The notes under the pieces were generated by a model that saw only the letters and a list, made by a program, of their open reading frames with translations, did not search any database and was not told the DNA's origin. Below are positions 1,672 through 30,833 of a stretch of 64,000 nucleotides of DNA, in pieces; position 1 is the first letter of the stretch, and each line of letters opens with the position of its first letter. A program made the translations under genes and the position numbers. Source of the stretch: Botryllus schlosseri (Eukaryota); assembly GCA_051294905.1 (NCBI GenBank), contig CM119372.1, positions 5,520,001 to 5,584,000 of the forward strand, given 5' to 3'.

Positions 1672-1752
1672 AGAATACGACAGTTGATTTCTGTGCTGCT
1701 AATTCATTGGAAACGGTTACTCATCCTACTACCGCTATTTCGACAGCAGCAG
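1672..1752 (+). CDS. Unit A Thr/Ser-rich stalk exon (ENTTVDFCAANSLETVTHPTTAISTAA)
   Basis: ttcgctcacag| acceptor, GCAG|gtagta donor, 81 nt, phase 1-1; homologous to the other four stalk exons. Confidence 0.7.
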
Positions 1753-3179
1753 GTAGTATTGCGCGGATTCATTAAATTGGCCACGGTTAAAATATTAGGC
1801 CTGTATATTTGTGTGGTGCCATGCATCAATAGTATGAACGTCACTTGCGTGTGTGTGGGTTGGTGCTGTGGCGATTAACTATCGTTAACAATTTGTTTCA
1901 CAACGGGCCATGTTGAAGTCAAAAATACCCTTTTTGATCGCCATTGCTGCTTGGTTTATCACCCTATGGGTGGCAGAAGACTAACGTTTTTTTTTCTGGC
2001 GAAGTGCTGTTTCGGCCCTGAACTGATGTCGTAGTTTTCGCAGTGGCTTGGTAATAAAAGCTTGGGGACTTCATGCATAAAACAAAAACAAAATAAAAAA
2101 ACAACAACAATAATAATAATGAAATCTTGTCTTGAACAAGGGCCATTTTTGAAACAGGCTTGACAATTACATTAAACATGGCCGCCACCACTTCATGAAA
2201 AAGCTTCCTTACCTTTACATCCCTACGCGACGCCTTGATGTAAATTTGATTATTACAATGTTTTGACAAAATTATATGCATGAGTTAATGCATGGTACAT
2301 TCATTGCACATATCGATGTAAGCGAGGTGAGCGTCTGGCTCAGTCGGTAACACAATCTGTATCTAGCATGAAACCGTCGACAAGGAATTTGAAATATTGT
2401 GAACATTATCCAGTCATTCTTGGGGCAAGTTTTTGTTGCAGTCAAATCCGTAAAAAGTTGCACTTATTTTTCACAAAAGTTGCAGTGAGAATTTGCATTT
2501 ATTTTTCACAAATGTTGCACTAAAAGTTGCATTTTGGACAATTTCTTTGACGTTGTAAGGGTATGAGATACTCTCATGCTAATCGATCCGTATCCAAGGC
2601 ACTGCAGCATAACTCAGTGTTGGCGACTTCGACTTCAACAAAATCAATAGCCTGAAAAAATTGACCAGGTGAATATATAATTTTGGGCGGTCTAGCCTGA
2701 ATGTACGTCGATTTAAACGACAGTGAAATAATCAAGTGATCTATTTACAGATAGTGCCAAATATTTCCAGTAAAAGTTGTATGAAAAATTTGCAGTAATT
2801 TTCATGAAAATCAAAAAAGTTGCATGAAAAAATGGAGATAATTTGCCAAAAATTGCAATGTGAGATTCCTCATAACAGCTTAAAACACCATGCTACATAA
2901 CTTCTAAGTATTGAGGAAACTGCCGGAAGCTGTAAAACCAAAGTTGCAAAAGTTGCAAAAGTTTGCCCTAGGTATTATACATCACTGCCATGTGTGTATG
3001 TATGGATGCATGTATGTATGGAATCCTGACTTTAATTGTCGAGATTGAATCGCTCACTCTAAATTATTAATAATATTAATATTATTAATTAAATTTCTAA
3101 ATTTCTTACCAAACAAGGTATTGCAATTGTAAAGTTATTAGCGGACAAGTATATTATTTAACATATTTTATTTCATACC

Positions 3180-3340
3180 ATGCTGACGGTAAGTTGCTTT
3201 TATTCATCATGAAGCCTTCCGAAGATTTTCTCCATCCGTAAATAAATATTATTACGATACAGCATGTCACAGAACATATGATTTAAGAATTGAAACCAAT
3301 GTTGTTGACTGGATAATATCTCTATTTGATTATCTGCTTC
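3180..3340 (+). promoter_or_regulatory. Conserved putative promoter/5'UTR module shared by units B, C (about 27690-27861) and D (about 41870-42034)
   Basis: Collinear shared blocks (caYcaWgaagcc..cgaag, ttgaaacc, gatta..tct) immediately upstream of each leader ATG; function inferred from position only. Confidence 0.45.
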
Positions 3341-3413
3341 ATGAAGGTCATCACCAGCGACACAATAGTCATAGCCATCATAACAATCCTATCACGTCAC
3401 GCCCTTGCCCAAG
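3341..3413 (+). CDS. Unit B signal-peptide exon (MKVITSDTIVIAIITILSRHALAQ)
   Basis: ATG, hydrophobic core, ALA-Q cleavage-like site, CAAG|gttact phase-1 donor; paralogs at 27862 and 42035. Confidence 0.8.
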
Positions 3414-4573
3414 GTTACTGACTTGATATATAATAAATATGTGAGGGATCGACCACATACCAGTCCGAGATCGAGAAACAGAAGACAAATAATATTAGTT
3501 TGAAACTGCAGTCTTCCAGAAATTTGAACGGCAAAAAGAATCAATCCAGACTGATCTGCAGTCGCACTGAATGTATAATGGTCGTGCCCGTGGCGTAGGA
3601 GTATATGATGCCACCCTGACTTTCGTTGAAAATGGCACCCTAACTAGACTGCAGCATATTTTGCAATAGTTTCATGTTCAAACAATTACACATAATGCGC
3701 TGTGTCTCAGAAGTTCGTTTGCTTGAGAAAGAAATCTATCCGTCAGACTTGTAAAAACTACCCATTTAGTTAGTTGATGTCAACTGACTAACGATTTTTG
3801 AGTAGTTATCGTTCTAGTTCTAGTTGCTGATTTTGAAAATTCAGTAGTTGTTGTTCTGGTTCTATGGCAGATTTTGAAACTTCAGTAGTTTTAGTTCTAG
3901 TTCTAGCTGCACATTAAAAAAAATAGTTGCCGAGCAACTAGAAAACACGTGTCGTCGTTTTGGGTGAATTAAGATGCCGGTGTTGAATGATTTTTATGCA
4001 ATGCGCTGCCATGGCACGCTCAGAGCCATCACTGCTAACAGTGGCGTAGCCAGCGGGTGGCTTTTTGGGGTTCGAATTTCTCCCATTTCAAACTCGAAAC
4101 CCTGTTCTTTTGAAATGTCGATTCAATGTCTGATATTTCCGATAAAAAAAATTAATGTGTGAACTATAGGAGAACGAAATCTAGTTCTGTCTGTACGGTT
4201 CTTAAACTTTAATGACTTAAGAATGACTACGTCACAGATGGGCAACTATTTTTCTGAGAATAACAGGCGCAGGATATACGTTGGCGAGCTAAGTCATGAT
4301 TTTGCGCTATATTCCGCGCTGTATTAATTTCTAATCATTTATAAATTGAAAGCAATGAAGTACATGGTAAGCACAAGCTTCTGGGTGGATGTGTTACTAT
4401 TAGGCAATTAGTAATTTAGAGTTAAAGTACAAAAATAATATTTATCCCAACTAATTATTCAAAACAAAGGCTTACAAGGAATATTGTTAAATCTTTTAAA
4501 TCACTCCAACCCCTAGACACGTCCTTCTATTAAGACACCAAAATGTATGGGATGTTACAGCTTGATCATTATC

Positions 4574-5460
4574 CAGTGTTGGGATCAAGTCACTACCTTC
4601 GAGTCACGAGTCATTTGAGTCATTGCAGATTTTGACTCGAGTCAAGTCAAGTCAATCGATTTTTGATGGTGACTCGAGTCAAGTCAAGTCACTCGATTTT
4701 TGGAGGTGACTCGAGTCAAGTCGAGTCAAGTCAAGTCAAGTCACAATTCAAGTCAAGTTGCCTTTTCGGCGTATCAGGCATGCTTACGTCATTGCATTTT
4801 GCTAGCTGTCTGAAATACATATTGCGTGGTTATTTATTCTGAGCCGATGAACGAATATAGAGTCAAATATACAAGCAAGAAGGCGCTGTATCGCTCACAT
4901 ATACCTAGAAATGCTAATTACATAGCCTCAGTTTAGTTACCAGCCAAAATAGAGACTATAGAAAAGCGAATAAATAAGATGTAATGCATTACCCATTAAC
5001 AAATTGATATGACAATATTCGAGCGTGCGCCAATGGTTGAGTACTATGTACACTATATTCGAATTCAATTTCAATAAAACAAGAGGTTTGGTTAATGCAC
5101 AAGAACAGAGAACAGAAATATCCATTTTGCGTAAGCTGTATGCTTCGATCACTTCATTTGTGGTTAATTTATTTGTGAGAGAACAATGGAGCTTCAGTAA
5201 AACGCACGATCATTGAATGATTGGTCGCTTTCACGGGTTAAACCAGCGTTTCGCGAACAATCCGACCATATGCAGGATAGAGTGTTTTCATCGACATCGA
5301 TTGCTTGATGACTGGAAATTGACTCGTGAATTTTGCTCCGAGTCACGAGTCAATCCGCATTTCTGATACGCCGAGTCAAGTCAAGTCAAGCCATTTTAGC
5401 AAAGTGACTCGAGTCAAGTCAAGTCATACGAAAAAGGTGACTCGAGTCATCCCAACACTG
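4574..5460. mobile_element. hAT-type MITE with GAGTC/AAGTC subterminal arrays
   Basis: TIR CAGTGTTGGGAT...ATCCCAACACTG, perfect 8-bp TSD TCATTATC; related partial copies at about 590-770 and 15790-16492. Confidence 0.9.
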
Positions 5461-7779
5461 TCATTATCCCGAGCGGTGTGTATAGCTTAGTAAAATCGTC
5501 CTGCCGTATTGGTAATTTCGCTAGCAGGATTTCCAAATTCGTCTTCTCGCAGCCTCAGCCGAATGACTGCGTGCTTATGTCATAATCCCGACTTAAATCA
5601 ACCCATGTTATATCGACTTTACTTTAAATATAGATTACGCTAGTAGCCAGGGATCGGCTACCCCTGGCACGCGTGCCAAAAGTGACACGCAATATGATTT
5701 TTCATGAGACGCTAAACGATTCGATGTGCGTTATTATAACTATGTTTCTTGCAAAAAATTGAAAGAAAAGTTTTCAAAATGGAAAAACTCGAAGGTGAAT
5801 CCAAATTAATTCGCAACATGAATGATAAGGACGTCTTTTGGAAGATATTTTATTTTTCATCAAAATTTTCTCTGCAGTTCTCGCGTATAGTCCGTATTTT
5901 CCCCGTGGACAGTAAAATGCCCAGGTCTGCCCTACGCTAATCTACAAGCCTTCAGGGAACCCGTAATTTTCAGTGAGTCACAAAACAAAAATCCACCACT
6001 GGTGTAGGCTACATACCATATGTGCTGTAATATGAAGGTATATACGAGTAAAGCTTGTCAGGCAGACTTGTACAAACTACCCATTTAATTAGTTGATAGT
6101 CAACTAAGTAACGGTTTTAGAGTAGTTCTAGATCTAGTTCTAGTTGCGGATTCTGAAAATTGGGTAGTTCTAGTTCTATTCCTAGTTGCGAGTTTTAAAA
6201 ATTGAATAGGCGTAGTTCTAGTTCTGGTTCTGGTTGCCCTTTTTGAAAATCTGGTAGTTTGTACAAGTTTGCTCACCGCCTCAACGTTAAGGCCAAAAAT
6301 AAAAGACAAAAAATGTAGAACAAACGTATATTAGGCAAATAAAAGATCAATAGCCGCATCAAAATAGAACTTTTCAAGCTTTCACCGAAACAAAATGAGC
6401 AAAAATATATTCCATATCATAACTTTGAACGTAGTCTCTGTTTATGAAATAATCGATAGAGCTGATAGCTGATCATCATTCATGGTAGAACGTAAGTTTA
6501 CTTCAGTATTTTGAGAAACTCCTCTCACAGCTCGCAATTGAATCAAGAATGGTAAGATAAAGTTTCAGACAAGGATATAAATAGCCATCTCTACGTGTTG
6601 CGTGCACTGTGCAGCCTCATTTTGCCGCCGCTTGCAGCCTGCCACACTGGCGCAGAGCCAGAATGAATCGCCAAGTGACTGCTACGCCACTGGGTCGTGG
6701 ATCCTATCTGCCGATGAGGTCAGCGCAAGATTTGAAATGCCGGGATACGGAATCATGAATCGAGCTTAGATCAAATTCGATACTAGACTCAACACGTAAA
6801 GGCCAAAGTTTGTTGCTCATGTATAGGAGACGGTCGGCTTCACATTTCGTCCACACCGACATTCTCATCTTCACAGAACAGCACCAATTCTAGATTGGGG
6901 GCCATTCTATAAGTTGGCAGATCAAGAATCATAATAAGAAATATCGACCTGGTGTAAATGACGATAATAGTCGAGGCAACACGAATACCAAAGCCACAAC
7001 GACAGAACGGCAGATGAGATATTTTTCATTGAATCGAATATATATATGCAATCTTTACATTTTTGAGTGAATTTGTCATTGCGACTGGACGAAATATCTC
7101 CTATGTATCACGGTAACTTAATATATTTTGGCAAACGTTAGTAAAGGAAAATATATATACTGTCTTCAGTCATTTTGTGTTATAGTCCAAAGTAGCCACT
7201 TTCGATCAACAGCGAAACTATTGTGACCCCCCGACCAAATCTAAAATATTGGGAAGCACGGGCTTAAAGTTTACCGAATACTCTGTCATACTGTGCTACA
7301 ACATTTTAGGTTTCATAAAATATTTCATTAAAAATATTGCTCTGTTGCTGTTATACGCTCACCAAATGTTCTCCAATGGAGATCAAAATTTGATTAGCTT
7401 TATCGGGAAAAATCCTGAAAAGATGAAGGAATTATGATATCAGAATTGGATTCAGCCACTTAATAGTAACATGAATCAATCATTAAAATTTGGGGCAAAA
7501 CTTTTTTGAAATTTGTGGACCAGTGTAATTTATGCATCGGCTTAGTGTAGTTGTTATAACATATATATAGAACCCAGGGATTTCTGGAAATCCCTGATAG
7601 AACCAGGTGGTTGCATTGATCACATTGGTACATCTGATCTCAGTTTGAGAGACATGTTCCAATTTTAGTATGTGTACTGCCGAAGCGAGTTTGAGAGCCA
7701 TGTTGATTACATTTTAATTCGCTTGATATCGTCGCTTAATTGTAACTGCACCTAACAGCTGGCAATGTGTACCTGACAG

Positions 7780-8049
7780 ATGATATTTCGTTTTCCGGGG
7801 AGGATGATGGTGGATGTAAAATTGTTGCGCTTGGAGATAGTGGACACAATACGCAGTGTCTGTCAGCATCACACCAACATGTAGCGTGGTGGCATGACGA
7901 CACGCGCGTGTCCGAGTATAACTCAGGGGAATCTGTTCGACAACTGGAAGGTCGGATTTACTTTTACTACTTCGCGACTGTCGACGATTCTGGTGATTAC
8001 TACTGCAAATCTGATTCAGATGAAAAGCTATTGCAAGTCTACATTGTAA
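7780..8049 (+). CDS. Unit B Ig-domain exon
   Basis: ctaac..ctgacag|ATGAT acceptor, GTAA|gtaagt donor, 270 nt, phase 1-1; TQC..VAWWHD..DDSGDYYC motifs. Confidence 0.9.
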
Positions 8050-8762
8050 GTAAGTAAATAGGTGAGACTCCATTCTAAAGTTTGTTTAAATTTTGAACGA
8101 CACCAGACGTTAAGCGTGCTGGAACTAGAGTTGCATTTGAAACAGAAAATCAATTTAAAACAAACATGCATAATACATAATGGATTAACATTAACAATTG
8201 AAAATATAGGGTGAATATAGTTCCTTTGTACAGTACAGTACAGTAATTGTTGAACCGACCATTCTGAGGGTTTCAATTATCCCATATCGTATCCATCGGC
8301 TATATCTGGTTGTAATTGTCCGCAGGCCCAAACAACATGTTATGCCAAAGGGGGCATAAGGGGAGCGAAAATGTTAGAACGTCCAGTGAGATATATTTAA
8401 TTATAATGGCCATGAAGACGACTTTTCTGCATATGACATGAAGAAATGGTCAACGCAAGCCGGTTTTCCGAGCACCTATTAGTAAATTTATTTTTAGGGT
8501 CAATTCAAGAGCGATCAGAGTTGGGCGAATAAATGTCACGTTTATATATCCTCATTTTCGGATCCATAAATAATGGGAGGGGGGGTTGGGGGCGAGAATT
8601 TGTGTCTAGCTTGATAATGCGGCGATGAGTCGAAAAAGGTTGGGAACCACTGATTTAAACGAAATGATTTAAATAACCATTTGCTTTAAATGCAACCCTA
8701 AAGCTGGAACACGCTTTCAAAGAATTGGGGAGCGTTATCACTAATTTCACTGTCACTCACAG

Positions 8763-8849
8763 ATGTAACGGAGACTTCTACAGAGGAATTGTGTACTAAT
8801 GATGCTGATACTTCTACTGGCGCTACTACTGCTATTTGGACACACGCAG
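8763..8849 (+). CDS. Unit B stalk exon (NVTETSTEELCTNDADTSTGATTAIWTHA)
   Basis: cactcacag| acceptor, GCAG|gtatta donor, 87 nt, phase 1-1, Thr-rich. Confidence 0.75.
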
Positions 8850-9912
8850 GTATTATTGTGTGAATTCAGTGTATTAGTCACGGTGATCAATGTTAGAGCT
8901 ATATGTAACAGCCAACAATACATTCAATGAGATACCACATTGAAATCAAATACACCCTCATTCAAAGCCATATTTGCCGCAGCATTTGACTGCATATAAG
9001 TTGTGTTGCTGCAAACGTCGAATATTTTATGCGACTTATTCCCTTTTCTGCAATATATGCACGGCTGTAACCAAGTCACAAGGTTCCGATTCACAAGTCA
9101 ATTTTACTTTCATGGTTTTGACTCGAGTCAAATCGAGTCATTTTCAATTCAGCAACGAGTCAAATCGGAGTCAAAGTCAGGAAGCAATGGGTCGAGTCAT
9201 AGTCATGTAGCAGGCCTGGGCAAAGTCCGGCCCGCGGAGCTATTCTGTGCGACCCGCGTAAGGTTGCTTGAAATTGAAAATATAAAACCTACTTTTTAAT
9301 GTTGTTGCGTGGACTAAAACCATAGGATGTATAAACTGAACCGGAAATTCGTGTACTATAAAGCCTGTTTATTAACATGCCGCGACCACGCAGCCTATAT
9401 GCGTACCTCATATCGGTAGTTCAGATTCAAAGTAAAGTCAATGTAGCAAATTATGCCGTTATAGTTATTAAATTCACAAGAAGTCACCAATCCGTCTTTG
9501 TTGCCATTGTCACATTACGCATTACACGGTCTGTGTTTCAAATTGATATGTGATGCGTTTCCAAATCCTGAGTTCGTGAAACAAGTCAATCAGTGCCCGT
9601 GATTTCTATTGGTAAATCACCATACATACAGGATGGCAAAAATATGAAGCCAAAAGTTCAAATTCAAAGAAGGTTCGGAGGACTGAATATTTGTTTACTA
9701 CCCGTCTTTTAGTCGTTAAGTGCTGAGCACGTCGCCGTGTTTAAGAAGTATAATTTAAGTTGGTTCTATGACAAAAAACGAAAACATTTAGGCTACACTT
9801 GATTAAGGGACGGCGAATTTCGGAATAACGGCAAGCTTGGCTCAACAGCAAGGCCATTTCGGCAAGATGCACACTTTTAGGAAACCAGCTACCAAGACAA
9901 TAAGTTTTATGG

Positions 9913-10354
9913 CAGTGTTTCCCAACCGGGGGGGGGGGGGGGGATTTTGAAATTTTTAGGGGGTAATCTGGCCTAATTATTTTAGGGGTAGAAATTAGAA
10001 CGTAGAAATTAGTTCATTACAATTGTATGTTTCTTTGGCGGATTTCAAGCTAGCTGTATGTTTAAATGCCTTCCGTAGATATCACACCCCCTGAAAAAGT
10101 GAGGCTCGCGAGACGATTTCGATGGGTCCGCAACAGCCTCTCGACCAAATTGCTACTAAGCAGGAAAACGTCAAGCCGAATTCAGCACAAGGTCGCTAGT
10201 GAAATTGATTTTTCAAGCCAACATATGAGCTAACGTGAAAACATACCGTACCAAATTCACCGACTCAACTCAAGTCCATAGCAAGCGGAGTTGGTTATTT
10301 TAGCTCAAATATCGGCCAAGGGGGGCACGAGACGAAAAAGCCTGGGAACCACTG
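9913..10354. mobile_element. hAT-type MITE inserted in an older hAT remnant (about 9211-10375)
   Basis: TIR CAGTGTTTCCCA...TGGGAACCACTG; TSD TTTTATGG/CTTTATGG. Confidence 0.7.
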
Positions 10355-11029
10355 CTTTATGGTATCCCCAGGACCATAACTTCAGTGGTTTATTGAATTG
10401 GGCATTACCGCCATTACCGCGCCACTGCGCTTCAAGATATATAAGAAGTTCAGGCCAACACGGGATTCCGAGAAGGCACTGCAATTGCAACTGCTGATCA
10501 AATTAACTGAGTAAAGGGAAAAAAGCTCGCCAGCGAAAAAAAACCTTGGCCGAGTAGGACTGCCCTTATGTTGACCGAAAACCACGTTGTCCAATTGTCC
10601 ATTCTTCCGACGCGGCACAGAAGTCAATGAGTGGCGCTTTGTCAGGTGTCGGATCCTGTCTGCTATACAGTAAATCTGGCTCGGACTAGACAAACCGTTG
10701 CGTATCAAATCTTTTTTTGATCTCAAATTCAAGCAGTCCAAACGAATTATACTGAAACAGCTTGTTCAGAATAAAGGCATGTAAATGGTGAGATTAGCAA
10801 GATTGCTTGTTCGTCCAATAACAGTTGAATGGAGGAAGAAATAGCAGTCACAGAGCAATATAAAGGTAAACGCGAACGGACGATGCGACAATTTAATCAA
10901 CCAATCATTAAATCAAACATGACCATTAAGAGTTGTAGAGGAGAATATCGGAATGTAACTAAAAACATGACTCGTCGAAACACTCCCCCACTTGACCGAC
11001 TATGATCGGTCAACAGATTCTTTAATAAT

Positions 11030-13466
11030 CTATCCAACTTCAAAAGACGAACGGATCGACGTAGAATTACCGCCGAACCCGCTAATGTCGGGACAATCGC
11101 TTTTAATCGGTGATAGCTTCAATGAAGCTAGATCACGAGTTACAAAGCTCTTCTGGGAAAAAGAGTCAAACGCGATTCTAACCGGTTTACCATCACCATT
11201 GTGGTTGATCCGTCCCAGCGTAGTAGGAAATAATGTGTTTGAATCTAAATCCCGCAATGCAGAGGTGGCAACGTCAGTAGTTGTTACCATACACTTGGAG
11301 TCGATCGATGGTTCCGTAGAAACGTGCAGCAATTTGTGGTGGGTTTTCCCACAACCAGCGGCGGTACAACGCTCCTTGCATTGATGAAAGTGTTTCGGGT
11401 GGCCTTTGTGTCCTTTCGGTGCTAAGCATCTAAAACACACTTTCCCAGGCTTCAAAACCAAGTCAGCCAATCGCTGGGCTGAAGTCAATTTCAAGAATCT
11501 GGAACAATCTTTCAATAGATGAGGTTTGGAGCAGTAGGCACAAGATAATGGAACAAATTGAATGACGAGAGACTGGACTGAAAACGATTGATCAGGCTTC
11601 TCGGTATCACAACTAACCCGTTCATCTCTATGCTGCGACTTATCACAAGTATAAGCAGAGCGGCTTCCATCACGCGACTTATATCCAGATTCCATCGTCA
11701 CCAACTCGGATGTTAGAAACTCAAACAAATGATCAGAATCAGGAACCTCATCGGCTTCGATCAAGGGACTAGTTTTCGTGATCCAACGTTCATGCAACGT
11801 ATACCCGGCAACTCTGGGACTCTAGTACCTGCGTAAAGAGTTGGTCCCGAAAGACGTCATACTGCGATAGAATAGCCCTTTTAGCAGCAGCGGCATCGAG
11901 AATTCGTCGGACTTCGTCGATCTTAATTCGATTCTCACCTTGCAGCAAGTCTTCGATGTGATTTCTTACTATAGCTTGCTTCTTCCCGTGCCTTTTTAAT
12001 AACGGCATCCACTGCAGGCTCATAATTCGCGGCCGTTGAGGGGAAACCATCGAGAAGGCCGGATGACGATCCTTCAAGAGCCGCCTTTAAATACGAGATT
12101 TTGTAGAACCGACTGAACTTTGGATTCTTATGAACAAGCGGCTCGAACGACTACCAAAAGGCAGGAAAGGTCAAAATGTCACCATTGAATGTAGGCGGCA
12201 CTATTCCACTGGGGAGAGAACCGGCGGCTTTGTCAGCTTCCTCAGCAGCTTCAAGTGATGAAGACTTGGATTTGGCAAGAGGAATGTGAACAAAATAAAT
12301 CTATTTTGATCTTTTCTTGCCATCAATGATCTCGGTCTTCAAATCACTATCGTCAAGCTGGTCTATTTTTGAATCCACGAATGTCTTAAGATCGGTCATC
12401 GCTATTTCTACCGACTGTATAAAGACATTGATTTCTTCTACGGAGGTGGAATGCGTATGTTTCTTTTCTAGAGCTTGCAAATAATCCCAGAGTTCGGCAT
12501 TCATGCGTCTGAATTTCCTTAAAATAACCGCAGGTCGACACGAATCTCCAATGTTTGCCGATGGATGGTTGGCGGGCTTCTTGACAGAGTCTTTCAAGAA
12601 CTCGCCCAAGTTGAGTAGGCTTACCATATTTTGGAAATCTAAAAAGAGGACACTTTTTCAGAAGTTTGAGACTTACAAAACCAGAGAAAAATTCTCAAAA
12701 ACCGGTGAATTATTCCCACTTTGTGATCGGTTGACTAAAAAAAAGGTCATCTTACCGCTCAGAGCTCAAAAATACCGTTTTTCTCTCCACATTGCTAGAT
12801 GGATGACTAAAAAAAAAAGGTCAACTTTTCGCTCAGAGCTAAAATCACCGTTTTTTACTCCGAAATACCAGCCGGAGCGTCACTTCTGTGCTAATTTACG
12901 GCATATCACTCGCAATTTGCTCCAAATCTGACCTAAATTTTCAAAAGAAAGGACAAAATCTCAAAACAGAGGACAAAAGGGCGTCCTCCGAGGACACTTT
13001 CAAAAAAGTCAAAAAAGAGGACAAATCCTCTTAAAAGAGGACGTATGGTAACCTTAAAGTTGAATTGGTCTTTCATTAACTCCTGGCGAATTTCTTTCAG
13101 GTTCAGTTGAAACCGTTTTTCGCTTTTATCACGAACTTGTGCCTGTATTCTTTCGGCTTCCTCACGATCCAGCACCTGTCTCTGCTTGAGCTCTTCGAGC
13201 TGCAACTGAAACTTGCGGTCGGCAGCTTCACGATCTAATTGCTGTTGCTGACGATCGAGATCCTGCTGATGCTTCATCATCTGGAAAAGCATAAACAGCT
13301 CAGATGGACTCTCAGTGGTAGCTGGAGAGGAGGACTTCTGCTTGGTTTTCTGTGAAGGCTTGGTCAAATCACGGATTTTCCTTAATCGCTCCGTTAATAC
13401 CGCCTTGCTCCCACTTGTAGTTTCGCCAAGATCTTGTAATTCGGATCGTAAATCGTCGACCGTCAT
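11030..13466 (-). pseudogene. BEL gag-protease pseudogene with N-terminal SAP-like motif, broken by stops, frameshifts and a MITE
   Basis: ORFs 12933-13466 (MTVDDLRSELQDLGETTSGSKAVLTERLRK), 12301-12627, 11790-12077 and 11030-11797 (CAYC..H..C, CFRC..H..C, C...CGKTHHKLLH). Confidence 0.8.
12616..13056. mobile_element. hAT MITE (TAGGCTTACCATA TIR, AAAAGAGGAC repeats) inserted in BEL gag
   Basis: TSD AAGTTGAG/AAGTTGAA; removing it restores the gag frame; same family at 39610-40028 and partially at 42856-43140. Confidence 0.88.
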
Positions 13467-14441
13467 CTTAGCTAATGACTTCCAAGTCGGTGCTAGGGTT
13501 CTAGGGTGCTAGAGACTCGCGGGAATCCGTTGGTGACTTCACAATAGACATCACTCAAAAGTATGGAAACTATATAAGTATTAGCAGATTTAGTGCCAAG
13601 CAGAGTCGATCGATCTTCGTTGGGCAGCAAGAGTCTTGAATGTAGACTAATACCATACGGTGCCTGAATTGAAGAGCGTATCGAAGATATCGGCTTTAAA
13701 TGGGCTTCTTGGGAATTGTTCCGACGCGTCACTGAAGTCAATGAGTGGCGCTTTGTCAGGTGTCGGATCCTGTCTGCTGTACACTAAATCTGGCTCGGAC
13801 TAGACAAACCGTTGCGTATCAAATCTTCTTCTGATCTTAAATTCAAGCAGTCCAAACGAATTATACTGAAACGGCTTGTTCAGAATAAAGACATGTAAAT
13901 GGTGGGATTCGCAAGATTGCTTGTTCGTCCGATAACAGTTGAATGGAGGAAGAAATAGAAGTCACAGAGCAATATAAAGGTAAACGCGAACGGACGATGC
14001 GACAATTCAATCAACCAATCATTAAATCAAACAAGACAATTAAGAGTTGTCGAGGAGAATAACGAAATAACATAATATCTTTGAGTATACGAGATTTGAA
14101 AGTCTGACCAACGTAGTTGAGAATTCATTTCTTACAATCGAACGCTGGTGTTATATCGAAAGTTATCATTCTGTAAACATAAGGATTGATACATTGATGT
14201 GACATATGTAATAGTTGATCATGACTTGATTATTAAATTATTCGCGTTAATTAGACCCGACGTTGTGGTAAAGGTTATTATGACAGCAACGAACGTTTCA
14301 CTACCATGGTTATTAACATGTTGAGTTGTAAAACTATACTTGTCTGAAATGTTCTTGATTGGAAAATTATTCCACCTTGGTACAAATTACTCTGCGTATC
14401 GCGGATATCAGAAAATATTTTACAAATGTAATTGTTTCCAG

Positions 14442-14577
14442 TTACCAAGACTAAAGATGAAACAACAAATTCGTTTGCTGGTCAACAACCGGTACAATAC
14501 ATTATTGTCAGAATCTGTGACAGTGAATTGAAACATACGAACCTTACACAGTACGAAAAAATCACTTTGGACTCCGG
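14442..14577 (+). CDS. Possible additional unit B ectodomain exon (VTKTKDETTNSFAGQQPVQYIIVRICDSELKHTNLTQYEKITLDS)
   Basis: tgtttccag| acceptor, open in phase 1, in non-repetitive sequence. The donor (GG|gtggcg) is weak and there is no paralog in the window. Confidence 0.3.
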
Positions 14578-17411
14578 GTGGCGTCATTTAATCCGTGTTA
14601 AACTATGTTCACACTCTCTGTCGAATGCGCGAAATGTAAAACATTACGAGGCTACACTCTAAGACTTTGATCAGCAAACAAGAAAATAGAGCTATATGCT
14701 TGTTGGATGGATCCTATTCAACCGACCTTGGTTAATAAAAAACTCATAACAATAATAAAATTACAGTATGTGCTACACTGAAATCCACAAAAATGTGTTT
14801 GTATTGCTGTTCATAGTAGTGATATCGATTTGAACCTCCAGAATAATTGTCATCATCTAACCAAACTCCTCACCTGCTCCCAGACGGCATAGTTGCGTCA
14901 CAATACCAAACTCCGTTACGATGCAACATTCGAAGCTGATTTTGGGGGGTTCCAGGACCACGAGCAGAATAGAATTTATATTTTCGCAATTAATACCGCG
15001 ATAGCTTTCGATTGATACCCGTTTTATCAATTTTAATGCTTGGCAAGCCGGTAAAAAATTACCGCCAAATTGCCTTTGACCAAAGGGAAAGTGCGACGTA
15101 GACCTCTTTCACTGAGCCGTGAGATTTGCTTGTGTACACACCTTATAGGACACTATGCTGTGCTCAATCAACTCACGGTGCAATCCCTAATTAACATTTC
15201 AATGTGTTCGATAAGCCTGGTACCCCAAATTTACCAATATATCAATTCATCAGGGCTGAGTAGGTGATGAGATAGCGTCGTTGTTCAACTGTGTGACCTA
15301 TTTTATCTCGATATTAAATTCATGCGGACCGCGGCATCTACGAAATTTGAAAAGTGGCCCACGACCCGTTTTGAGTTGGCGTCCCCTGGCTAAGCGGTGT
15401 CTTACAAAAGCCTACAAGTGTGCCGTGCTACAAGTCGGCGGTTACGGAATCAAAAATTAGAAATATCGGTCTGGTGTAAATGACCATTGTAGTCTACCAA
15501 CACCATGATTACCACAAACGATATTAGGGTTGAGTACATCATAAATGCCGATAATGCAAGTCTTCTCGCTTCGACGAACTTACGTGCAAGCTCCACTCGC
15601 ACGCTGCGCATACAAATAACATACAGTCACTAAAATTTGACGTAGTAAGCAAGTAGTGGGGTATCTCGGCAGACTGTAGCCGCGGGCCACATTATCATAT
15701 AAGACGGAAAACTGTCCGCATGCCGGACAAAATCCCTTCGCTGGCCGGATCCGGCCCGCGGGCCGTATGTTGCCCACCCCTGGTGTAACCCGTGAGAGTG
15801 ACCAATCATCCAGTGATCGTGCGTTTTACTGAGCCTCCATTGTTCTCCCACTAATAAATTGACCGCTAACGAAGTGATCGAAGCTTACAGTTTACGCTGA
15901 CGTAAACTAGCAGAGTAAAGTAATTATATAGCAAAATGTCTATTACTGTTCTCTGTCATTACCTGAACCAAACTTCTTGTTTTATTGAAATTGAATTCGA
16001 ACATAGTCCTCAACCATTGGCGCATGCTAGAATTATATCATATCAATTTGTAAATGAGTGATGTATTGCATCTTATCAATTCGTTTCTCCATTCTCTATT
16101 TTGGCTGGTAACTATAAGCTGAGGCTATGCTATTACTTACGTAGTTTAGCATTTCTACGTATATGTGACCGATGCAGCGCCTTCTTGCGTGTATATTTAA
16201 CTTCATATTCTTTCATCGGTTCAGAATCAATGACCACTCAATCTGTATTTCAGACAGCTAGCAAAATGCAATAACGTAAGCATGCCTCATAGTTCGAAAA
16301 GGCAACTTGACTTGAAATGTGACTTGACTCGTGACTTGACTTGACGTGACTCGAGTCACCTCCAAAAATCTAGTGACTTGACTTGACACGAGTCACCTTC
16401 GAAAATCGATTTACTTTACTTGACTCGAGTCAAAATGTGCAATGACTCGAAATGACTCGTGACTCGAAGGTAGTGACTTGATCCCAACGCTGATAGTACG
16501 TAGATATAGATCATCGGTACGGAATGAATGTTCTGATGATGATGACCGCCGACCGTAAAAATGCCACATGACGATGTGGTCCTGGTTAAAGATATTTTTG
16601 GTCCGTATATGACAGCAGTTCGAAGCCTATTTCGTCAAAGGAGCTGTAATCACCATATATTTTCAATTGGAAATATGAATCCACGATGACGTCATATTTA
16701 ATATGCATGACGTCAAGGCTTAGAAAAAACAAAAACAAAAAATACACGTTTTAAACAAGGGCCTTGTTTTAAATATGTTCGTTTTAAATTGATTTTTGTT
16801 TAAACACAACCCGAGCTGTGTAGCTTTTTTCATTCATTGCAATTTTCACGTCAATTTCTGGTTCAAATTCTTTGCAATTCAACTTCTAGCCACTCCATGC
16901 ATGGCGCTGGCAGCACTAAACGAGCGTGCACCTTGCAGATCTCAAAAATTTTGCTTGCTGTAATACATAAGTTTGTTCGAAATAACCAGATTTGCATTGT
17001 GTGTGTAGTTATGCCAGCCTACACTGCTACACAGGGCAGCATTAACAAAATGCTGCCAGTTTATGTATTCATGGTTTATTCCTTGTAGAAATTAGTAGGA
17101 ATGGTGCAAACCTTTGTAAGATTCTGATTGGCATACTGAATACGTTCGCACCATCCCTAAAAATTGGTACCTCCTCAGATTGACTACTTGCCGACGACCA
17201 TACTGCAAAAGTGAAATCAACAACTCTCCGGCAGACGCAGTCGATGATTGCCAATAATTTGTGATACGCTTACACGTTCTAAAGGCACTTTTTGTCGGAT
17301 GATTCGGACATGAAGTGTCGGATAACGAAGCTCTAACGTTTATATATTTGCAGAAACCGGCGGAACACTCGGGAATTCAAAAGAAGAATTTAATATTGGT
17401 ATGCTCTAAAT

Positions 17412-18185
17412 CAGGGGTCGCCAACTCAAAACGGGTCGCGGGCCACTTTTCAAATTTCGTAGTGGCCGCGGGCCGCATGAAGTCACTGTCGATATAAAGT
17501 AGGCAAACACGTTTTAAAACTCTACGTCAGTACAACACTGTGCTACCTAACATAGGAGATGGCGATAGTGACCACAAAAGAAGTAATATTTTATTAAACA
17601 AATGAAAATACAACAAAAGATCACTGTCACCAATTTCATTTTATTTTGTACCTGGAACGCTTTTGGGGGGCTGGGGAGATACGTTACTAGCTGAAAAACT
17701 ATCTCCTCGTAAAGCTTGATCTTGTGGAGGAGTCCTAAGCCAGTGGTTCTCAAACCTTTTTAGATATGCCCCCTTTATGATACTGAAAATTTGGTCCCCT
17801 CCCCCTTATCGTCATATCACAAAATGCATCCATAATGCTAGCAAACGGATAGTTTGAGAGAATGTTGATGAGAGATATCTATAATATGAATTCAGGACTA
17901 TAGCCTACACAGAGCAATAACTATAACCATGAATTCGAGGTAAATCGCGCCGAGCGCGAAACATTTTCAGTTGACCACAGCTCCGCGCCCCCTTCAGATG
18001 CTTTGACGCCTCCACAAGGGGAAGTGCCCCCCAGTTTCAGAACCACAGCCCTAAGCCGTTTTCTATTCGTCTCAATCTTGGCAGTGTTTCGGCCATTGCA
18101 CGTCAATTTCAGCATTTCCAAATGTTTTCTTAGCTTTCTTCCGAAATCTCAAATCAAGTTGCGGGCCGCGTGTTGGTGACCCCTG
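17412..18185. mobile_element. hAT MITE (CAGGGGTC TIR) containing nested MITE 17741-18048
   Basis: Perfect TSD CTCTAAAT; inner element CAGTGGTTCT...AGAACCACAG with TSD TCCTAAGC/CCCTAAGC. Confidence 0.85.
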
Positions 18186-18199
18186 CTCTAAATCATAAC

Positions 18200-18471
18200 G
18201 AGCGAGATCGTGCAATGGTTGTGCGCCCGGCTTCTCGATCGGTAGGTCGTGGGTTCGATCCCCGGCCGGGTCAGACCAAAGACTCTAAAAACTGGTATCC
18301 ACGGCTATCCTGCTAGGCGCTCAGCAATCACGGATAGCATGGAGGAGAAAAAAACCGGGGGGTGCAGACTAGATGACCTTACTAAAAAGGCCGTATCGCA
18401 TCTCCGTCGTCAAAGCATCTCGATGGCGCAGGCGAAAAAGAATACCATGTCTCTCTCTCTCTCTCTCTCTC
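18200..18471 (+). mobile_element. tRNA-derived SINE with (TC)n tail
   Basis: A-box-like head, B-box GGTTCGATCCC, central GGTCAGACCAAAGACTCTAAAAACTGGT..CTGCTAGGCGCTCAGCA resembling conserved animal SINE core domains (from memory), microsatellite tail. Confidence 0.75.
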
Positions 18472-18610
18472 ATGCATATATTACGGAAAATAACGTACCG
18501 TGAATTCGCACCGTGCATTATTTCCAAAATCCAATCGTAGCGCTAAAAGCATGTACGTACCGTAAGGTATCAGTTCCTTGCCTGTAATCCCCGGTTCCCT
18601 TTCATTGCAG

Positions 18611-18692
18611 TGGTGCTAATTGCGATTCCTGTGACATTGATATTGGTGATAGTACCGTTGAGTCTATTGGTCGCGTGGTGTCTCAGTCTCAG
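18611..18692 (+). CDS. Unit B transmembrane exon (VVLIAIPVTLILVIVPLSLLVAWCLSLR)
   Basis: ttccctttcattgcag| acceptor, CAG|gtaact donor; phase 1 in, phase 2 out; about 25 uncharged, mostly hydrophobic residues. Phases match the stalk exon upstream and the tail exon downstream. Confidence 0.8.
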
Positions 18693-18837
18693 GTAACTTT
18701 TGCATAGCGACATGAAGAATATGATATAGTGTAAAATGGGGGGAAATATTTTACAGACGCAAAACTCATGAACAAACCTCTGATCGATCATGCTCAAGGT
18801 GTGTATACTTTATATTTATTTGCTATTACCTCTATAC

Positions 18838-20018
18838 CAGTGGTTCTCAAACTTTTCAAAAAATTCTCAAAGCAGTCCCTTGAGAATTTTTTACAGGACT
18901 GGGACTTACGGTGTCAATATGACAGGTGTAGGCCTAGTCGACATGCAACTCTACTATCGTCAATCATATTAAACTGGTTCAAATTCGCATTCAACCACCG
19001 AAGACGGTGGTCTTTGCCCCCATAGGGTGATCAACCCAATCTCTGGGAACGAATCCTTCTGACCCCTGTTAATTCCAACACTACCATTTATACAACCGAT
19101 TACCAAACGGAATTACGCGATTCGCGAACGAACCGAAATAGCTAACGGCAAACGCAAGACCTATTAATTTGTTTCTATCTGCTTAGTACGCACCAACCAG
19201 TGTTACGAATATTAGTATGCAGCTATTTTCTTGTCGCGTGAAACGCGAATATCTTTTCAACAAAAAAATAATTGCTTTGTCGAAGCATATGCTTATTTCG
19301 TGAACTCAAGTAATGATTGTCGCTACGCGAAAGATATTGCAATCGCTCACACGCACCAGACTGGACGAAAGGAAAAAGTCCTTTTCAATTTGCATTCCAT
19401 TTCCAACACGGAGAGCATCATTTTCTTCCTAGAGTCGCATTTCTTCCGCGCAGGGCTTAGATCAGCACTATTCGATGCTTCAACATATCAATTTCGAATA
19501 TTCCGGAGAACATTCGGTGATAATGTTGGGCCACGATTTTATCGCTAGTGATCTTTTCGACAGCGCTGTCGTAAAGTTGCATGTTGGCCAAACCTTCACA
19601 TGTCTTGCTGTGTCCTGGCGCGGAAATTGTCAGCGCCGAAATGCGGATGATGCCCTCGCAGGCTTGGCTCGGCTAAAGTATTTCAAGCGATGCTTTCATA
19701 ATTGAGAATACATGTGGACTTATTTCAGAATAAATATGCGTGTTTTGTTCGGGGGTGGGTATAATACGCATAATAAAATCATGGAATGAAGTGACAATGA
19801 AGCACGCCTCAATTCGGCACCAAACTACTCTACTTTATGTTGAATAACGATACAATATCTGGCCACCATCGAGTTCGTTCTAAAAACAAGTTGCCTGAAA
19901 TTTTTATATTCCAATGTTCTTTTTCTGGATTGTTTGATTTTTTGGAACGTGCTTCGCGGTCCTCAAAAATTATGTCGCGGACCCAACAAGACTGTGGACT
20001 CCAGTCTGAGAACCACTA
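18838..20018. mobile_element. Non-autonomous hAT (Charlie-like) element; diverged related copy at about 20640-21668
   Basis: TIR CAGTGGTTCTCA...TGAGAACCACTA, TSD CTCTATAC/GTCTATAC; about 1 kb of diverged direct similarity to 20640-21668. Confidence 0.7.
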
Positions 20019-21765
20019 GTCTATACCGATTTTCCTGGTCAATGACCAGTAGAGCTGTTCAAAAACGACTATTTTTACAAATATTACTGGATAATTGATT
20101 AAATAGTTAGGTTACCTAAAAACTCCGCAAACCAATTTGGGCTCAATTCCTACCTAGTGGCGTTGCTATAAGAGTAAAAAGTTTTGGATTTATTCAATAA
20201 AAAATAGACGTTTTTTCAAATTTTACTGGTTACCCCATGGAATTGTTACATTGTCTGAAAAAACAATGCACAACAAATTTGATTTAAAAGGAACCAGTAT
20301 AATCGAAGTTATGTATTTTAAAATTTGAGATTTCAAATCATGGTATTTACGGTGGGTAGTCCAATAAAAAATAACTAAAGAATTTGCCACTGTAAATACT
20401 ATTTTTTCCAAATCCGAAATTCTGTTCTCCGATAACTCTGTTTGCACTGGTTGGAATTGTACCAAATTTGTTGTGCATCGTTTTTTCGGACAACGTAACA
20501 ATTTCAATACGTTTGATACCATAGTGGTAATTCGACAGGTGTAGCCGATTTTTGGGACCAGCTCGGCTATGTTTGTTTGCGTTTTTGAGAACGAAACTTT
20601 AATATCATGAATCACATCCATCCGGTTCGAATTCTCTTTCAACCCCCGGAAACGTTGGTCTTGGCATAATCTCTGGGGGAAGAACCCTTCATACTCATTT
20701 TATCTATACGAGTAACTTGATCATTAGCCTTTATAAATCCGATTCACAAATGGTATTACGAGATTCACGAACGAGCCGAAAGATAGCTAACGGCAATCGC
20801 AAAACATATTAATCTGTATCCCTCGTCTTAGTAAGCACAAGCCAGGGTGCAGTGACTTTCTTGTCGCGCGAAGCACGAATCTAGGAGAGTGAATTTTGTC
20901 AATACGAATAGTTGCGTTGTTGAAGGATGTTGTTATTTCGGGAACTCAGGTATTATTTTCGCTGCCCGAAAGATATTGGAATCGCTCACGCGTACCAGAC
21001 TAAACTAAAGGAAAAATTCCTTTTCAATTCGCATTTCAACACCAGGAGCATTATTTTCCTCTCCGAAGCGCATTTGTAGCGCGGGGCTTAGATTAGGACT
21101 ATCGGGTTCCGGGTATTTCGGTGCCTGAACATATCAATATCGAAGGTTCCACCCAACATGCGATGATAATTTTGGGACATGGCTTTATTACGAAAGGCGA
21201 CGTTCTTCTGGTGACGTTGCATGTTTGCCAAACCTGTATATGTCATGGTGTGTGCTGGCGTGGAAATGGTCAGCGCCAAAATGCCCGTGATGCACCCGAA
21301 GGTCTACCTCCTCCAGTGATGCTCTCATGATTGCGAATACAGGTAAAGCTATTGTAAAAATATGCGTATTCGTTTAGGGAGTGGGTATAGGCTACGCGAA
21401 ATAAAACCAATAAACACATATAGTGACAGTAAAGTAGGTGAAGCGCGATTAAAAGCGCATATTTCTGCACCAAAATAGCCTACTCTATTTTCTGTTGATT
21501 ACCGATATCGTGTCGAGCCACAATGGAGTTTGGTTTAAAAATAAGTTCCCTGAACTTTCTTTCTATTATTTTTTCTGGATCATTTGAATTCTTGGAACGT
21601 GCATCGCGGTCCTAGAAAATATCTCGCTGACCCAACAAGGACCTGTGACCACAGTTTGAGAATGACCCCTCTATGCCATAAATACGAAACGAACATAGCG
21701 CAATAAAGTTGTAGATAAAGCGATGAGTTTAGTTATTTATTTCTACACTTTCTTACCTGCTGCAG

Positions 21766-21910
21766 AATGGTTGACACACACGACTGTGATTACGAGTATC
21801 CGAGTAACAATGGATGTATGATGTATGAAACAAGTCTGCAGACGGATTGCCAACAGGCGGCATATGATAATCCGACGAACAAATTAGCTGAAGCTGCACA
21901 CTATGAGTAA
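21766..21910 (+). CDS. Unit B terminal cytoplasmic exon (MVDTHDCDYEYPSNNGCMMYETSLQTDCQQAAYDNPTNKLAEAAHYE*)
   Basis: Pyrimidine-rich tract and ctgcag| acceptor; phase 2 completes AG|A (Arg) with the TM exon; five Tyr in acidic contexts; TAA stop. Confidence 0.75.
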
Positions 21911-27861: not shown

Positions 27862-27934
27862 ATGAAGCCCAACGCCAGCACTGTCCTTATCACAGCTATT
27901 ATAACAGTCCTATCACGTCACGTCCTTGCTCAAG
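27862..27934 (+). CDS. Unit C signal-peptide exon (MKPNASTVLITAIITVLSRHVLAQ)
   Basis: 73 nt like leader B; CAAG|gttagt donor; conserved upstream region. Confidence 0.82.
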
Positions 27935-30743: not shown

Positions 30744-30833
30744 ACGTGACCGAGGATACGGCAGAGGAATTGTGTAATACTGATCCAATGGAATGGTCTA
30801 CTGGTGCTACTACAGCTATTTCGACATCCGCAG
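30744..30833 (+). CDS. Unit C stalk exon 1 (NVTEDTAEELCNTDPMEWSTGATTAISTSA)
   Basis: caccaacag| acceptor, GCAG|gtatta donor, 90 nt, phase 1-1. Confidence 0.72.

Follow-up and report, generated by a model that had tools for sequence, protein, structure and literature searches.

The question raised by this locus of the colonial tunicate Botryllus schlosseri is what, if anything, is made by receptor-like units whose leader, immunoglobulin (Ig) and stalk exons are intact and which are followed by no exon for a transmembrane (TM) segment or a cytoplasmic tail. The window, that is the whole stretch of DNA first described, comprises 64,000 nucleotides (assembly GCA_051294905.1, contig CM119372.1, forward strand positions 5,520,001 to 5,584,000), and its numbering is continued here into the neighbouring DNA. 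The locus is a cluster of small one-Ig-domain receptor genes in which anchor-less and membrane units alternate (Table 1). Three times a TM-less unit lies immediately 5' of a TM-bearing one, as A-B, C-D and E-F, the third pair being located 50 kb past the window end. The boundaries given in a preliminary description of this DNA (end of stalk A at 1752, leader B at 3341, TM exon of B at 18611, end of the second stalk of C, C2, at 31589, leader D at 42035) proved right, as did its claim that every ectodomain exon is entered and left in phase 1; this holds for leader, Ig, stalk and 45-nt exons alike, and the TM exon is entered in phase 1 too. Its exon model of unit B placed the TM exon correctly and was incomplete, as it overlooked the 45-nt exon at 17354-17398, which is revealed by RNA reads and has counterparts 5' of the D and F TM exons. 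It had suggested seeking a TM/tail paralogue beyond position 64000, and the TM exon of D lies 24 kb past the window end. Conservation makes a cag|AT acceptor the most probable start of the Ig exons (A 982, B 7780, C 30304, D 58587).

Table 1. Exons and intervening regions of units A to D, in window numbering.
Feature	Position	Strand	Remarks
Unit A leader	-5161..-5092		5.1 kb before window start
Unit A Ig exon	982..1248	+	phase 1 in and out; open frame, cag acceptor, gtaagt donor
Unit A stalk exon	1672..1752	+	one Cys; weak donor CAG|gtagta
Unit A read-through tail	1753..1776	+	7 codons; TAA 1773-1775 within ATTAAA 1771-1776; GT-rich DNA after
A-to-B spacer	1777..3340	+	repeat and DNA homologous to upstream regions of leaders C and D
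Unit B leader (signal peptide) exon	3341..3413	+	
Unit B Ig exon	7780..8049	+	alternative start 7759, also in frame; donor from RNA joint 8049>8763, acceptor predicted from family conservation
Unit B stalk exon	8763..8849	+	RNA joints 8049>8763 and 8849>17354
Unit B 45-nt membrane-proximal exon	17354..17398	+	phase 1 in and out; RNA joint
Unit B TM exon	18611..18692	+	phase 1 in, phase 2 out
Unit B juxtamembrane exon	18757..18798	+	
Unit B first tail exon	21766..21906	+	Tyr-rich
Unit B last coding exon with stop	22345..22441	+	closes open 278-codon frame
Unit C leader exon	27862..27934	+	
Unit C Ig exon	30304..30570	+	
Unit C stalk 1 (C1)	30744..30833	+	with Cys; no poly(A) hexamer after
Unit C stalk 2 (C2)	31500..31589	+	no Cys; donor weakened to CAA|gtatta
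Unit C read-through tail	31590..31613	+	TAA 31610-31612 within ATTAAA 31608-31613; (TG)n tract after
C-to-D spacer	31614..42034	+	transposon remains and DNA homologous to leader C upstream region
Unit D leader exon	42035..42092	+	
Unit D Ig exon	58587..58856	+	
Unit D stalk exon	58989..59075	+	
Unit D 45-nt-type, TM and juxtamembrane exons	~87.07, 88.39 and 88.5 kb		outside window

The lack of a TM or tail exon in 1753-3340 and 31590-42034, as claimed in the preliminary description, is confirmed by searches both with and without homology. In the gaps after A and C tblastn with the six exon peptides of B found no TM or tail exon, and comparison of the gaps with the constant regions of B, D and F and with an orphan constant set termed Z (blastn and tblastx) returned matches only to transposon or microsatellite sequence. 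A strict homology-free scan of 254 kb for TM-type exons, which recovered all four known TM exons and two other places, found none in the gaps. Private TM exons of A and C, the discovery of which was said to contradict the earlier interpretation, are thus found in neither gap by homology search or by strict scan, and the gap after E is likewise devoid of TM, juxtamembrane and tail exons by the same two approaches. What the gaps do contain is what had been described, transposable elements and duplicated upstream DNA, the latter recognisable because it is homologous to the DNA that precedes leaders B, C and D; a Harbinger-type DDE open reading frame is located at 35999-36454 inside the C-to-D gap.

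But what happens to a transcript that runs past the last stalk of such a unit? Translation of the read-through yields the peptides that had been predicted (A ..AAGSIARIH*, C1 ..SAGIIV*, C2 ..PASIIVCIH*). A canonical poly(A) hexamer is present within 200 nt past the stalk donor wherever the stalk is the last of a TM-less unit (A, C2 and E2, three of three), and within 200 nt of none of the eight remaining stalks (B, C1, D, X, E1, F, G and H), at a background frequency of 1.53 hexamers per kb; since the copies are related, the pattern represents about two independent lineages (A; C2/E2), and a Fisher test at the level of lineages would be non-significant. In A, C2 and E2 the hexamer stands at an offset of 19 nt from the weak donor and overlaps the read-through stop each time. 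The sole difference between the hexamers of C2 and E2 is that between ATTAAA and AATAAA, the poly(A) signal having these two canonical forms. The stalk donors of the TM-less units still begin with GT, and that of E2 is identical to the donor of B, which is used in vivo, so that onward splicing could still take place.

On this arrangement we base the reading that we tentatively favour, namely that A, C and E are secreted Ig-stalk paralogues of the neighbouring one-Ig receptors. They would be intact paralogues with a promoter each, derived by partial duplication of leader, Ig and stalk, and their products would lack a membrane anchor. Transcription would most likely stop shortly past the last stalk exon, with read-through of its weak donor; after 7 codons the frame would then reach the TAA that belongs to the ATTAAA or AATAAA poly(A) signal, with GT-rich DNA beyond. 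The predicted product is secreted, with a length of about 146 residues for A and about 180 for C, and has a single Ig domain between the signal peptide and a stalk that is rich in Thr and Ser and carries a free Cys. Poly(A) site use, secretion and a role of A, C and E as decoys or partners are what we infer here. A secreted Ig plus stalk had also been considered in the preliminary description, and it gains support at the level of sequence, both from the stop codon inside the hexamer in A, C2 and E2 and from the intact frames and splice sites discussed below.

Four of the 24 listed RNA runs were examined over A-B, each sampled at 6-13%. Unit B is spliced from Ig to stalk to 45-nt exon in one of the four (X4), in which the joints 8049>8763 and 8849>17354 are each covered by 5 reads (the latter reported as 8845>17350, 'cut +4', with GT..AG ends) and the bin of the B Ig exon has a depth of about 4.3; at the TM exon of B the local depth is swamped by a repeat. 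Ig A has depth 0 in all four runs, and the bin containing stalk A has depth 0 in three of them, with about 2 reads somewhere in the bin in X6. No joint involving A is among the 15 of 54 RNA joints listed and, given the zero depth of Ig A and the near-zero stalk A bin, hidden A joints are very unlikely. B is spliced while A has no coverage and is therefore transcribed without A.

Are A and C then partial duplicates without a product, silent or dying, in a cluster whose turnover is fast and leaves gene pieces of every kind? We regard this as unlikely without being far-fetched. The RNA runs, in which B is detected and A virtually is not, would fit such relics, and the cluster does contain other orphans: the TM/juxtamembrane/tail set Z, located 5' of leader A and preceded for 25 kb by neither Ig nor stalk nor leader exon; a lone stalk exon at ~83.97 kb (window numbering); a leader at 135069 with no Ig exon for 52 kb; and F's copy of the 45-nt exon, which has lost its AG acceptor. 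Moreover, dN/dS over 21 pairs is 0.32-0.78 and thus moderately below 1, and the Ig exons of C and E (pN 0.21, pS 0.31) are no better conserved than the flanking introns (non-coding difference about 0.16-0.20), which together indicate that constraint on the protein sequence is weak.

However, several features of the sequence argue against plain decay of A and C. In both units the frame stays open when leader, Ig and stalk exons are joined by coordinate, none of the 7 coding exons is broken, and neither a splice dinucleotide nor a start codon has been lost; the same is true of E. C and E are collinear across leader, Ig and both stalks at 76-84% identity; the TM-less two-stalk layout is hence older than their split, and both copies have remained intact. 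In a drift simulation at the flanking non-coding rate, which assumes one third of indels to be in frame and takes the TM-less state as old (for A an assumption only), the chance that frame, splice dinucleotides and ATG are all kept is 2e-5 for the C-E path, and simulations of the same type give 5e-3 for half of that path and 1.4e-3 for A's half path. The earlier argument that the intact Ig frames of A and C speak against simple decay is thus borne out by frames, splice sites and simulation. Changes at core as compared to variable positions number 2/33 and 10/58 in A, 4/33 and 19/58 in C and 6/33 and 21/58 in E, so that the core is avoided about as it is in the TM-linked members B (2/35 and 7/56) and F (11/44 and 18/48). 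The poly(A) hexamer is retained in all three TM-less units as well, and the silence of A is a matter of four lightly sampled runs of the 24. As an alternative keeper of the open frames, gene conversion from working paralogues could be considered.

A second alternative, which we consider slightly less likely still, is that the last stalk donor of A or C is spliced into the next unit, either to its Ig exon to give a two-Ig receptor or to its 45-nt/TM exons as a shared constant region. All junctions would be in frame, given phase 1 throughout including entry into the TM exon, the stalk donors are retained, that of E2 being the one B uses in vivo, and each of the three TM-less units directly precedes a TM-bearing one. 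U1 snRNP suppresses nearby poly(A) sites, and a signal close to a 5' splice site permits a choice between splicing and cleavage; with the signal 19 nt past the 5' splice site, splicing into the neighbour could alternate with the secreted form. The preliminary description had put forward both the shared constant exons and the two-Ig receptor and named A-to-B junction reads as the telling observation, but there are none among the joints listed, no listed joint leaves A at all, and with A lacking coverage in four runs and B spliced alone in one, in X4, neither version finds support. In addition, B, C and D retain leader exons of their own together with homologous upstream DNA, an A transcript could reach the constant exons only by passing over the Ig and stalk exons of B, two exons with working acceptors, and at least four constant sets exist, one of them without an upstream cassette. 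Finally, the hexamers adjoining the donors would cut such transcripts short.

A mixture of secretion and onward splicing is conceivable but improbable. Here, a TM-less unit would be a switchable cassette in which recognition of the weak stalk donor competes with cleavage at the poly(A) signal 19 nt further on. Where cleavage wins, the secreted Ig-stalk protein would be made; where the donor wins, an in-frame join to the neighbour's Ig or 45-nt/TM exons would produce a membrane receptor with a different or doubled Ig head. That A and C have overlooked private anchors, be it highly divergent TM exons or a lipid anchor signal, is very improbable: units G and H, with Ig and stalk intact and no nearby TM exon recognised by homology or strict scan, suggest that anchors of this family can evade these searches, and a looser scan gives 12 overlapping hydrophobic candidates for the A gap and 22 for the C gap, but these were rejected as having the acceptor within the stalk donor, as (TG)n microsatellite read as Cys-Val or as repeat copies, the A gap is just 1.6 kb long and filled by the post-stalk module, a repeat and DNA homologous to leader-upstream regions, and read-through tails of 7 residues are too short for a lipid-anchor signal.

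In clustered protocadherins and UGT1A, tandem variable first exons lie upstream of TM-proximal or cytoplasmic exons. The present cluster resembles them in its tandem units with upstream DNA of their own and in its phase-compatible junctions, and differs in having 3-4 exons per unit with working internal acceptors. A single shared constant set of this type was rejected, as the TM/tail sets number at least four (Z, B, D and F) and lie dispersed among the units. Variable units lacking a 3' acceptor were rejected too, as RNA shows the stalk acceptor of B in use and the Ig exon of B included in the transcript; unlike such units, all eight Ig exons of the family have a conserved acceptor. In the immunoglobulin heavy chain (mu-s/mu-m), poly(A) site choice determines whether the secreted or the membrane form is made. 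This case and intronic polyadenylation in general share with the TM-less units a poly(A) signal located just past a 5' splice site and 5' of membrane exons. Genes of the mu-s/mu-m type, however, make both forms from one transcription unit, whereas a TM-less unit is followed by the next gene's promoter without any membrane exon in between. Truncated secreted decoys of the intronic-polyadenylation type are represented by DAF-2B and soluble PD-L1, as described in PMC13421766 and PMC6877088, respectively.

The closest likeness to the preferred reading of A, C and E as secreted paralogues is offered by LILRA3, which PMC10679719 presents as the soluble exception among the LILRs. Like it, A and C are tandem-cluster paralogues with signal peptide and Ig exons and without TM and cytoplasmic parts, and their sequence combines intact ectodomain exons, no TM or tail exons and a stop with a poly(A) signal. 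Different from LILRA3, they carry one Ig domain plus a stalk, have no sequence relation to LILRs and are known from genes alone, and the TM-less form recurs three times, each directly 5' of a membrane-bound unit.

One 250-kb stretch displays how a receptor cluster grows by partial duplication, into membrane receptors, anchor-less copies that acquired or kept the ending with the stop inside the poly(A) signal, an orphan constant set and orphan exons. If expressed, the anchor-less copies would be natural soluble counterparts of their membrane neighbours, as decoys or as disulfide partners through the stalk Cys, and soluble counterparts are a recurring theme among immune-type receptor families. 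If they instead splice into their neighbours, they would provide a rare case of cassette choice in an Ig receptor, and a switchable cassette, if true, would mean that a receptor family restricted to one lineage unites the secreted/membrane switch of the antibody heavy chain with a choice of cassettes like that of the protocadherins.

With one Ig domain, a Cys-bearing stalk, a TM segment and a tail with a Tyr motif, unit B is laid out like a chain of the CD3/CD79 type, and there are weak Pfam matches to Ig_5 and Ig_4, the Ig models of CD3 epsilon and delta (Ig_5 20.5 bits, cut-off 27.3). Yet only one Yxx[IL] is visible by eye in the tail of B, and there is no paired ITAM, which would require two Yxx[LI] spaced by 6-12 residues; the TM exon of B has no evident charged residue. 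With Ig_4 and Ig_5 below cut-off and no ITAM in the tail of B, membership in this type was rejected.

The family is new and unannotated, and it is of a known kind, that of soluble paralogues within an Ig receptor cluster. The genome contains eight Ig exons of the family, all open, with the Cys-Trp-Cys core and the DSGDYYC motif, and all retain a cag acceptor and a gta/gtg donor. Invariant in the eight copies are C33, W43, D79, Y80, Y81 and C82, in agreement with a D-x-G-x-Y-x-C type motif. Against the Pfam Ig models all four window copies stay under the gathering cut-off (best Ig_3, 24.1 bits as compared to 30), a word-based search of 5.8 billion proteins gave no match to the family, and the AlphaFold2 model built from the 8-sequence alignment, at a mean pLDDT of 43.8, was too poor for a structure search. 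Among 1.8 billion representatives searched with a profile, the sole clear relative is one 95-residue fragment. The family profile reaches 256 proteins at E <= 0.001 and 8 at E <= 1e-30, known Ig-repeat proteins among them, and the best 150 of these 256 matches are mostly long proteins with several matched stretches each. The nearest ESM Atlas clusters contain V-set, I-set or ig families.

Units A and C of this immunoglobulin (Ig) receptor cluster reach the next leader without a transmembrane (TM) or tail exon, as the preliminary description had claimed, and that observation is here confirmed and extended. With the exons of unit B as tblastn queries, leader, Ig and stalk matches were obtained for every unit; matches to the TM, juxtamembrane and tail exons were lacking both in 1753-3340 (stalk A to leader B) and in 31590-42034 (the second stalk of C, C2, to leader D). 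The constant sets of TM, juxtamembrane and tail exons are of two types, one represented by B and by Z, an orphan set upstream of leader A, the other by D and F; when all four were compared by blastn and tblastx with the gaps that follow A, C and E (E and F are units outside the window), only transposon and (TG)n matches were returned. A strict homology-free scan of the plus strand over 254 kb (YAG acceptor, phase 1 in and phase 2 out, GTR donor, 19-residue hydropathy of at least 2.4) recovered 4/4 known TM exons; its other matches were an artefact of a tandem repeat (3806-3884) and one exon-like stretch (151333-151417), with zero matches in the three gaps. The gap candidates of a looser scan (12 for A and 22 for C, counting overlapping entries) were rejected, as their acceptors lay within the stalk donor or they were microsatellite-coded or situated in repeat copies. 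The gaps hold, as had also been described, transposon remains and DNA homologous to stretches upstream of other leaders.

Past position 64000, where the preliminary description had proposed looking, TM/tail paralogs are indeed present, in D and in F. Unit E has the layout of C, with a leader, an Ig exon, two stalks and no TM exon; F starts 2.8 kb after it and has leader, Ig, stalk and TM exons. There are thus three such pairs, each a TM-less unit with a TM-bearing one immediately downstream. C and E are collinear; across leader, Ig and the two stalks they are 76-84% identical, the longest block having 14 gaps per 1035 nt, and therefore the TM-less two-stalk layout predates their split. The Z set (G000:C2 ~5505540-5510620; window -14460 to -9380) is of B type and comprises TM, juxtamembrane, duplicated tail and last exons, all open; the preceding 25 kb yielded no leader, Ig or stalk exon, and the interval between Z's last exon and leader A is collinear with the one between the last exon of B and leader C.

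Features of the Ig receptor cluster (window numbering)
Feature	Position	Strand	Remark
A leader	5.1 kb before window start
A Ig exon	982-1248	+
A stalk exon	1672-1752	+
B leader exon	3341-3413	+
B Ig exon	7780-8049	+
B stalk exon	8763-8849	+
B 45-nt exon	17354-17398	+	found from RNA
B TM exon	18611-18692	+	phase 1 in, phase 2 out
B juxtamembrane exon	18757-18798	+
B tail exon	21766-21906	+
B last exon	22345-22441	+	with stop
C leader	27862-27934	+
C Ig exon	30304-30570	+
C stalk C1	30744-30833	+
C stalk C2	31500-31589	+
Harbinger-type DDE ORF (DDE_Tnp_4)	35999-36454		transposon remnant in C-D spacer
D 45-nt exon copy	~87.07 kb		downstream of window
D TM exon	88386-88452		downstream of window
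D juxtamembrane exon	~88.5 kb		downstream of window
Ig copies E, F, G	50-123 kb past window end	same as window units
Ig copy H	contig C14		not on the window's contig

Unit B is the complete member: its eight coding exons join into an open 278-codon frame to the stop, and leader, Ig, stalk and 45-nt exons are alike in phase 1. The 45-nt exon had been overlooked in the preliminary exon set and was revealed by RNA joints of run X4. RNA reads of four of 24 listed runs (X4, X6, X7, X8), each sampled to ~6-13%, were mapped on 900-20899. Among indexed runs none was listed as matching 900-9000; a small run from 2015 contained 0.15 of the words. In X4 the joint 8049>8763 has 5 reads with 5 distinct starts and the joint 8849>17354 has 5 reads (given as 8845>17350; cut +4, with GT..AG ends). 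Both joints are seen in X4 only, and the B Ig bin reaches a depth of ~4.3 there and below 1 in the other three runs. Over Ig A (bin 900-1566) the depth is 0 in 4/4 runs, and over stalk A it is 0 in three of the four, X6 having 0.35 on one strand, or ~2 reads of unknown position. In X4, A is thus at least several-fold below B, and since B is spliced and covered while A is empty, B is transcribed and spliced without A. Of the 54 RNA joints 15 are listed; as an exon without reads cannot take part in a joint, joints from A among the rest are very unlikely.

What would the TM-less units then produce? We aligned the stalk modules and scanned the 200 nt downstream of each of the 11 stalk donors for AATAAA/ATTAAA, whose background is 1.53 per kb. 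The hexamer is present downstream of A, C2 and E2, precisely the stalks with which the three TM-less units end, in each case at offset 19 and containing the TAA of the read-through frame, and within 200 nt it follows none (0/8) of the stalks of B, C1, D, X (a lone stalk exon), E1, F, G and H. Between the sister copies C2 and E2 the hexamer differs by a single change that converts one canonical form into the other, and GT-rich DNA lies downstream of all three. Striking when counted as 3/3 vs 0/8, the pattern is suggestive once shared descent, which leaves ~2 independent positive lineages, is taken into account. Tentatively, A, C and E may be secreted Ig-stalk paralogues, a reading that fits their anatomy, their hexamers and their intactness and that no read of the four runs supports. 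The preliminary interpretation is thereby partly supported, in its secreted arm alone; its other arm, shared constant exons, finds no support, there being no read in its favour and B being transcribed on its own.

Alternatively, A, C and E might be silent relics, which we consider rather doubtful. This would match the missing RNA of A and a cluster rich in orphan pieces, but it fits poorly with the intactness of the units. Frames are open and splice sites intact in A and C, and in C and E alike no frame, acceptor, donor or start codon has been lost. In a drift simulation at the rate of the flanking non-coding DNA, which treats 1/3 of indels as frame-preserving and takes the TM-less state to be old (in the case of A purely by assumption), the chance of intactness was 2e-5 over the whole C-E path, 5e-3 over half that path and 1.4e-3 over the half path of A. 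Replacements in A, C and E, moreover, spare positions that do not vary among the other five copies, to about the extent seen in controls. The earlier argument from the intact Ig frames of A and C against simple decay is upheld by these results. On the other side stand dN/dS ratios of 0.32 to 0.78 over 21 pairs of seven Ig copies (B was left out for an anchor motif mismatch). The Ig exon is no better conserved between C and E than the units' own introns, which fits a fast-evolving binding domain but equally weak constraint, and gene conversion could help to keep the frames open.

It is unlikely that A and C splice from their stalks into the neighbouring unit. The phases are compatible and the stalk donors survive; such splicing would, however, demand that working acceptors be skipped or a second Ig be added, the adjacent poly(A) signals oppose it, and B is independently transcribed, with zero reads in favour of a junction. 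A mixed switch between cleavage and splicing at the TM-less units, the boldest of the readings, is less probable still, and that A and C possess private anchors which were missed is very improbable.

Antibody mu chains obtain their secreted form (mu-s as opposed to mu-m) from a poly(A) site before the membrane exons. The nearest mechanism to the secreted reading is that of truncated secreted receptors from a poly(A) site ahead of membrane exons, and the nearest known kind is LILRA3, a soluble paralogue within a membrane Ig-receptor cluster (PMC13421766 and PMC6877088, and PMC10679719, respectively). Two features that define a protocadherin-type locus fail here: instead of a single shared constant set there are at least four (Z, B, D, F), interleaved, and instead of acceptor-less units there is a B stalk whose acceptor is used in RNA. 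The layout of B resembles that of CD3/CD79 chains, yet its Pfam matches are sub-cut-off and a paired ITAM is absent.

The window (G000:C2:5520001-5584000 of a 495 Mb eukaryotic genome; G+C ~40%, GT-AG introns, abundant transposon remains) holds four of the genome's eight Ig-domain exon copies. Each of the eight has an open frame, and 24 positions are invariant among them, the Cys-Trp-Cys core and a DSGDYYC motif included; they also have in common a conserved cag acceptor, with a ctaac-like branch site ahead, and a strong gtaagt-type donor. In Pfam they score below cut-offs only (top model Ig_3, 24.1 bits vs 30). Among the matches listed, a profile of the eight retrieves long multi-Ig proteins and, as sole clear relative, an unnamed 95-residue fragment; word-based protein searches, 'near' for Ig A and 'longer' for Ig B, gave no match, the nearest ESM Atlas clusters are generic Ig only, and the domain model (pLDDT 43.8) is too poor for fold comparison. 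The family is new and unannotated, but familiar in kind.

Several isolated pieces accompany the units. X, of C2 type (~83970-84050; G000:C2 ~5603970-5604050), sits between the stalk and TM exons of D, carries a 12-nt in-frame deletion and reads CTTAAA at the hexamer position. A decayed Ig exon candidate 2.2 kb upstream of it (81715-81816; G000:C2 5601715-5601816) was dropped as a control, being a single tblastn match (E 0.13) that contains an internal stop and lacks a blastn counterpart. F's copy of the 45-nt exon (G000:C2 ~5645240, window ~125240) has lost its AG acceptor, so that F probably skips it. In unit H (G000:C14 ~9476790-9477510, minus strand) the Ig exon is intact and the stalk exon is of unit-G type; neither a leader nor a TM exon was recognised within 30 kb. 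A further leader exon at 135069 (G000:C2 5655069), with no Ig exon over the next 52 kb, and the TM-like exon at 151333-151417 (G000:C2 5671333), 16 kb downstream and with matching phases, may be another rearranged member.

The high RNA depth over 12.2-13.6 kb and over 17.6-18.9 kb is repeat-derived. Over the former it reaches ~79 per strand (X8), and many reads continue into other sequence. Direct repeats of 354 nt at 10601-10954 and 13715-14068, 94% alike, bracket ~2.8 kb with minus-strand ORFs, one of which (12936-13508) has a SAP domain, and 10601-14068 looks like an LTR-type element in B's long intron. Just upstream of B's TM exon lies a repeat (18202-18461) whose other copies in the region are 89% identical. 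RNA reads in the thousands match 18214-18283 alone and then run into other sequence, and some of them start with a template-switch-like prefix. The repeat resembles a SINE and seems to be highly expressed; ARAGORN found no tRNA in 18100-18500. Suspected inverted ends around 17412-18185 were unconfirmed by the repeat finder. B's juxtamembrane-tail intron contains a tandem duplication (18947-20012 / 20595-21662, 68% identity) and a minus-strand ORF of 158 codons (20226-20699) with no Pfam match. A zf-BED (hAT-like) transposon ORF lies at 60157-61080, past D's stalk exon.
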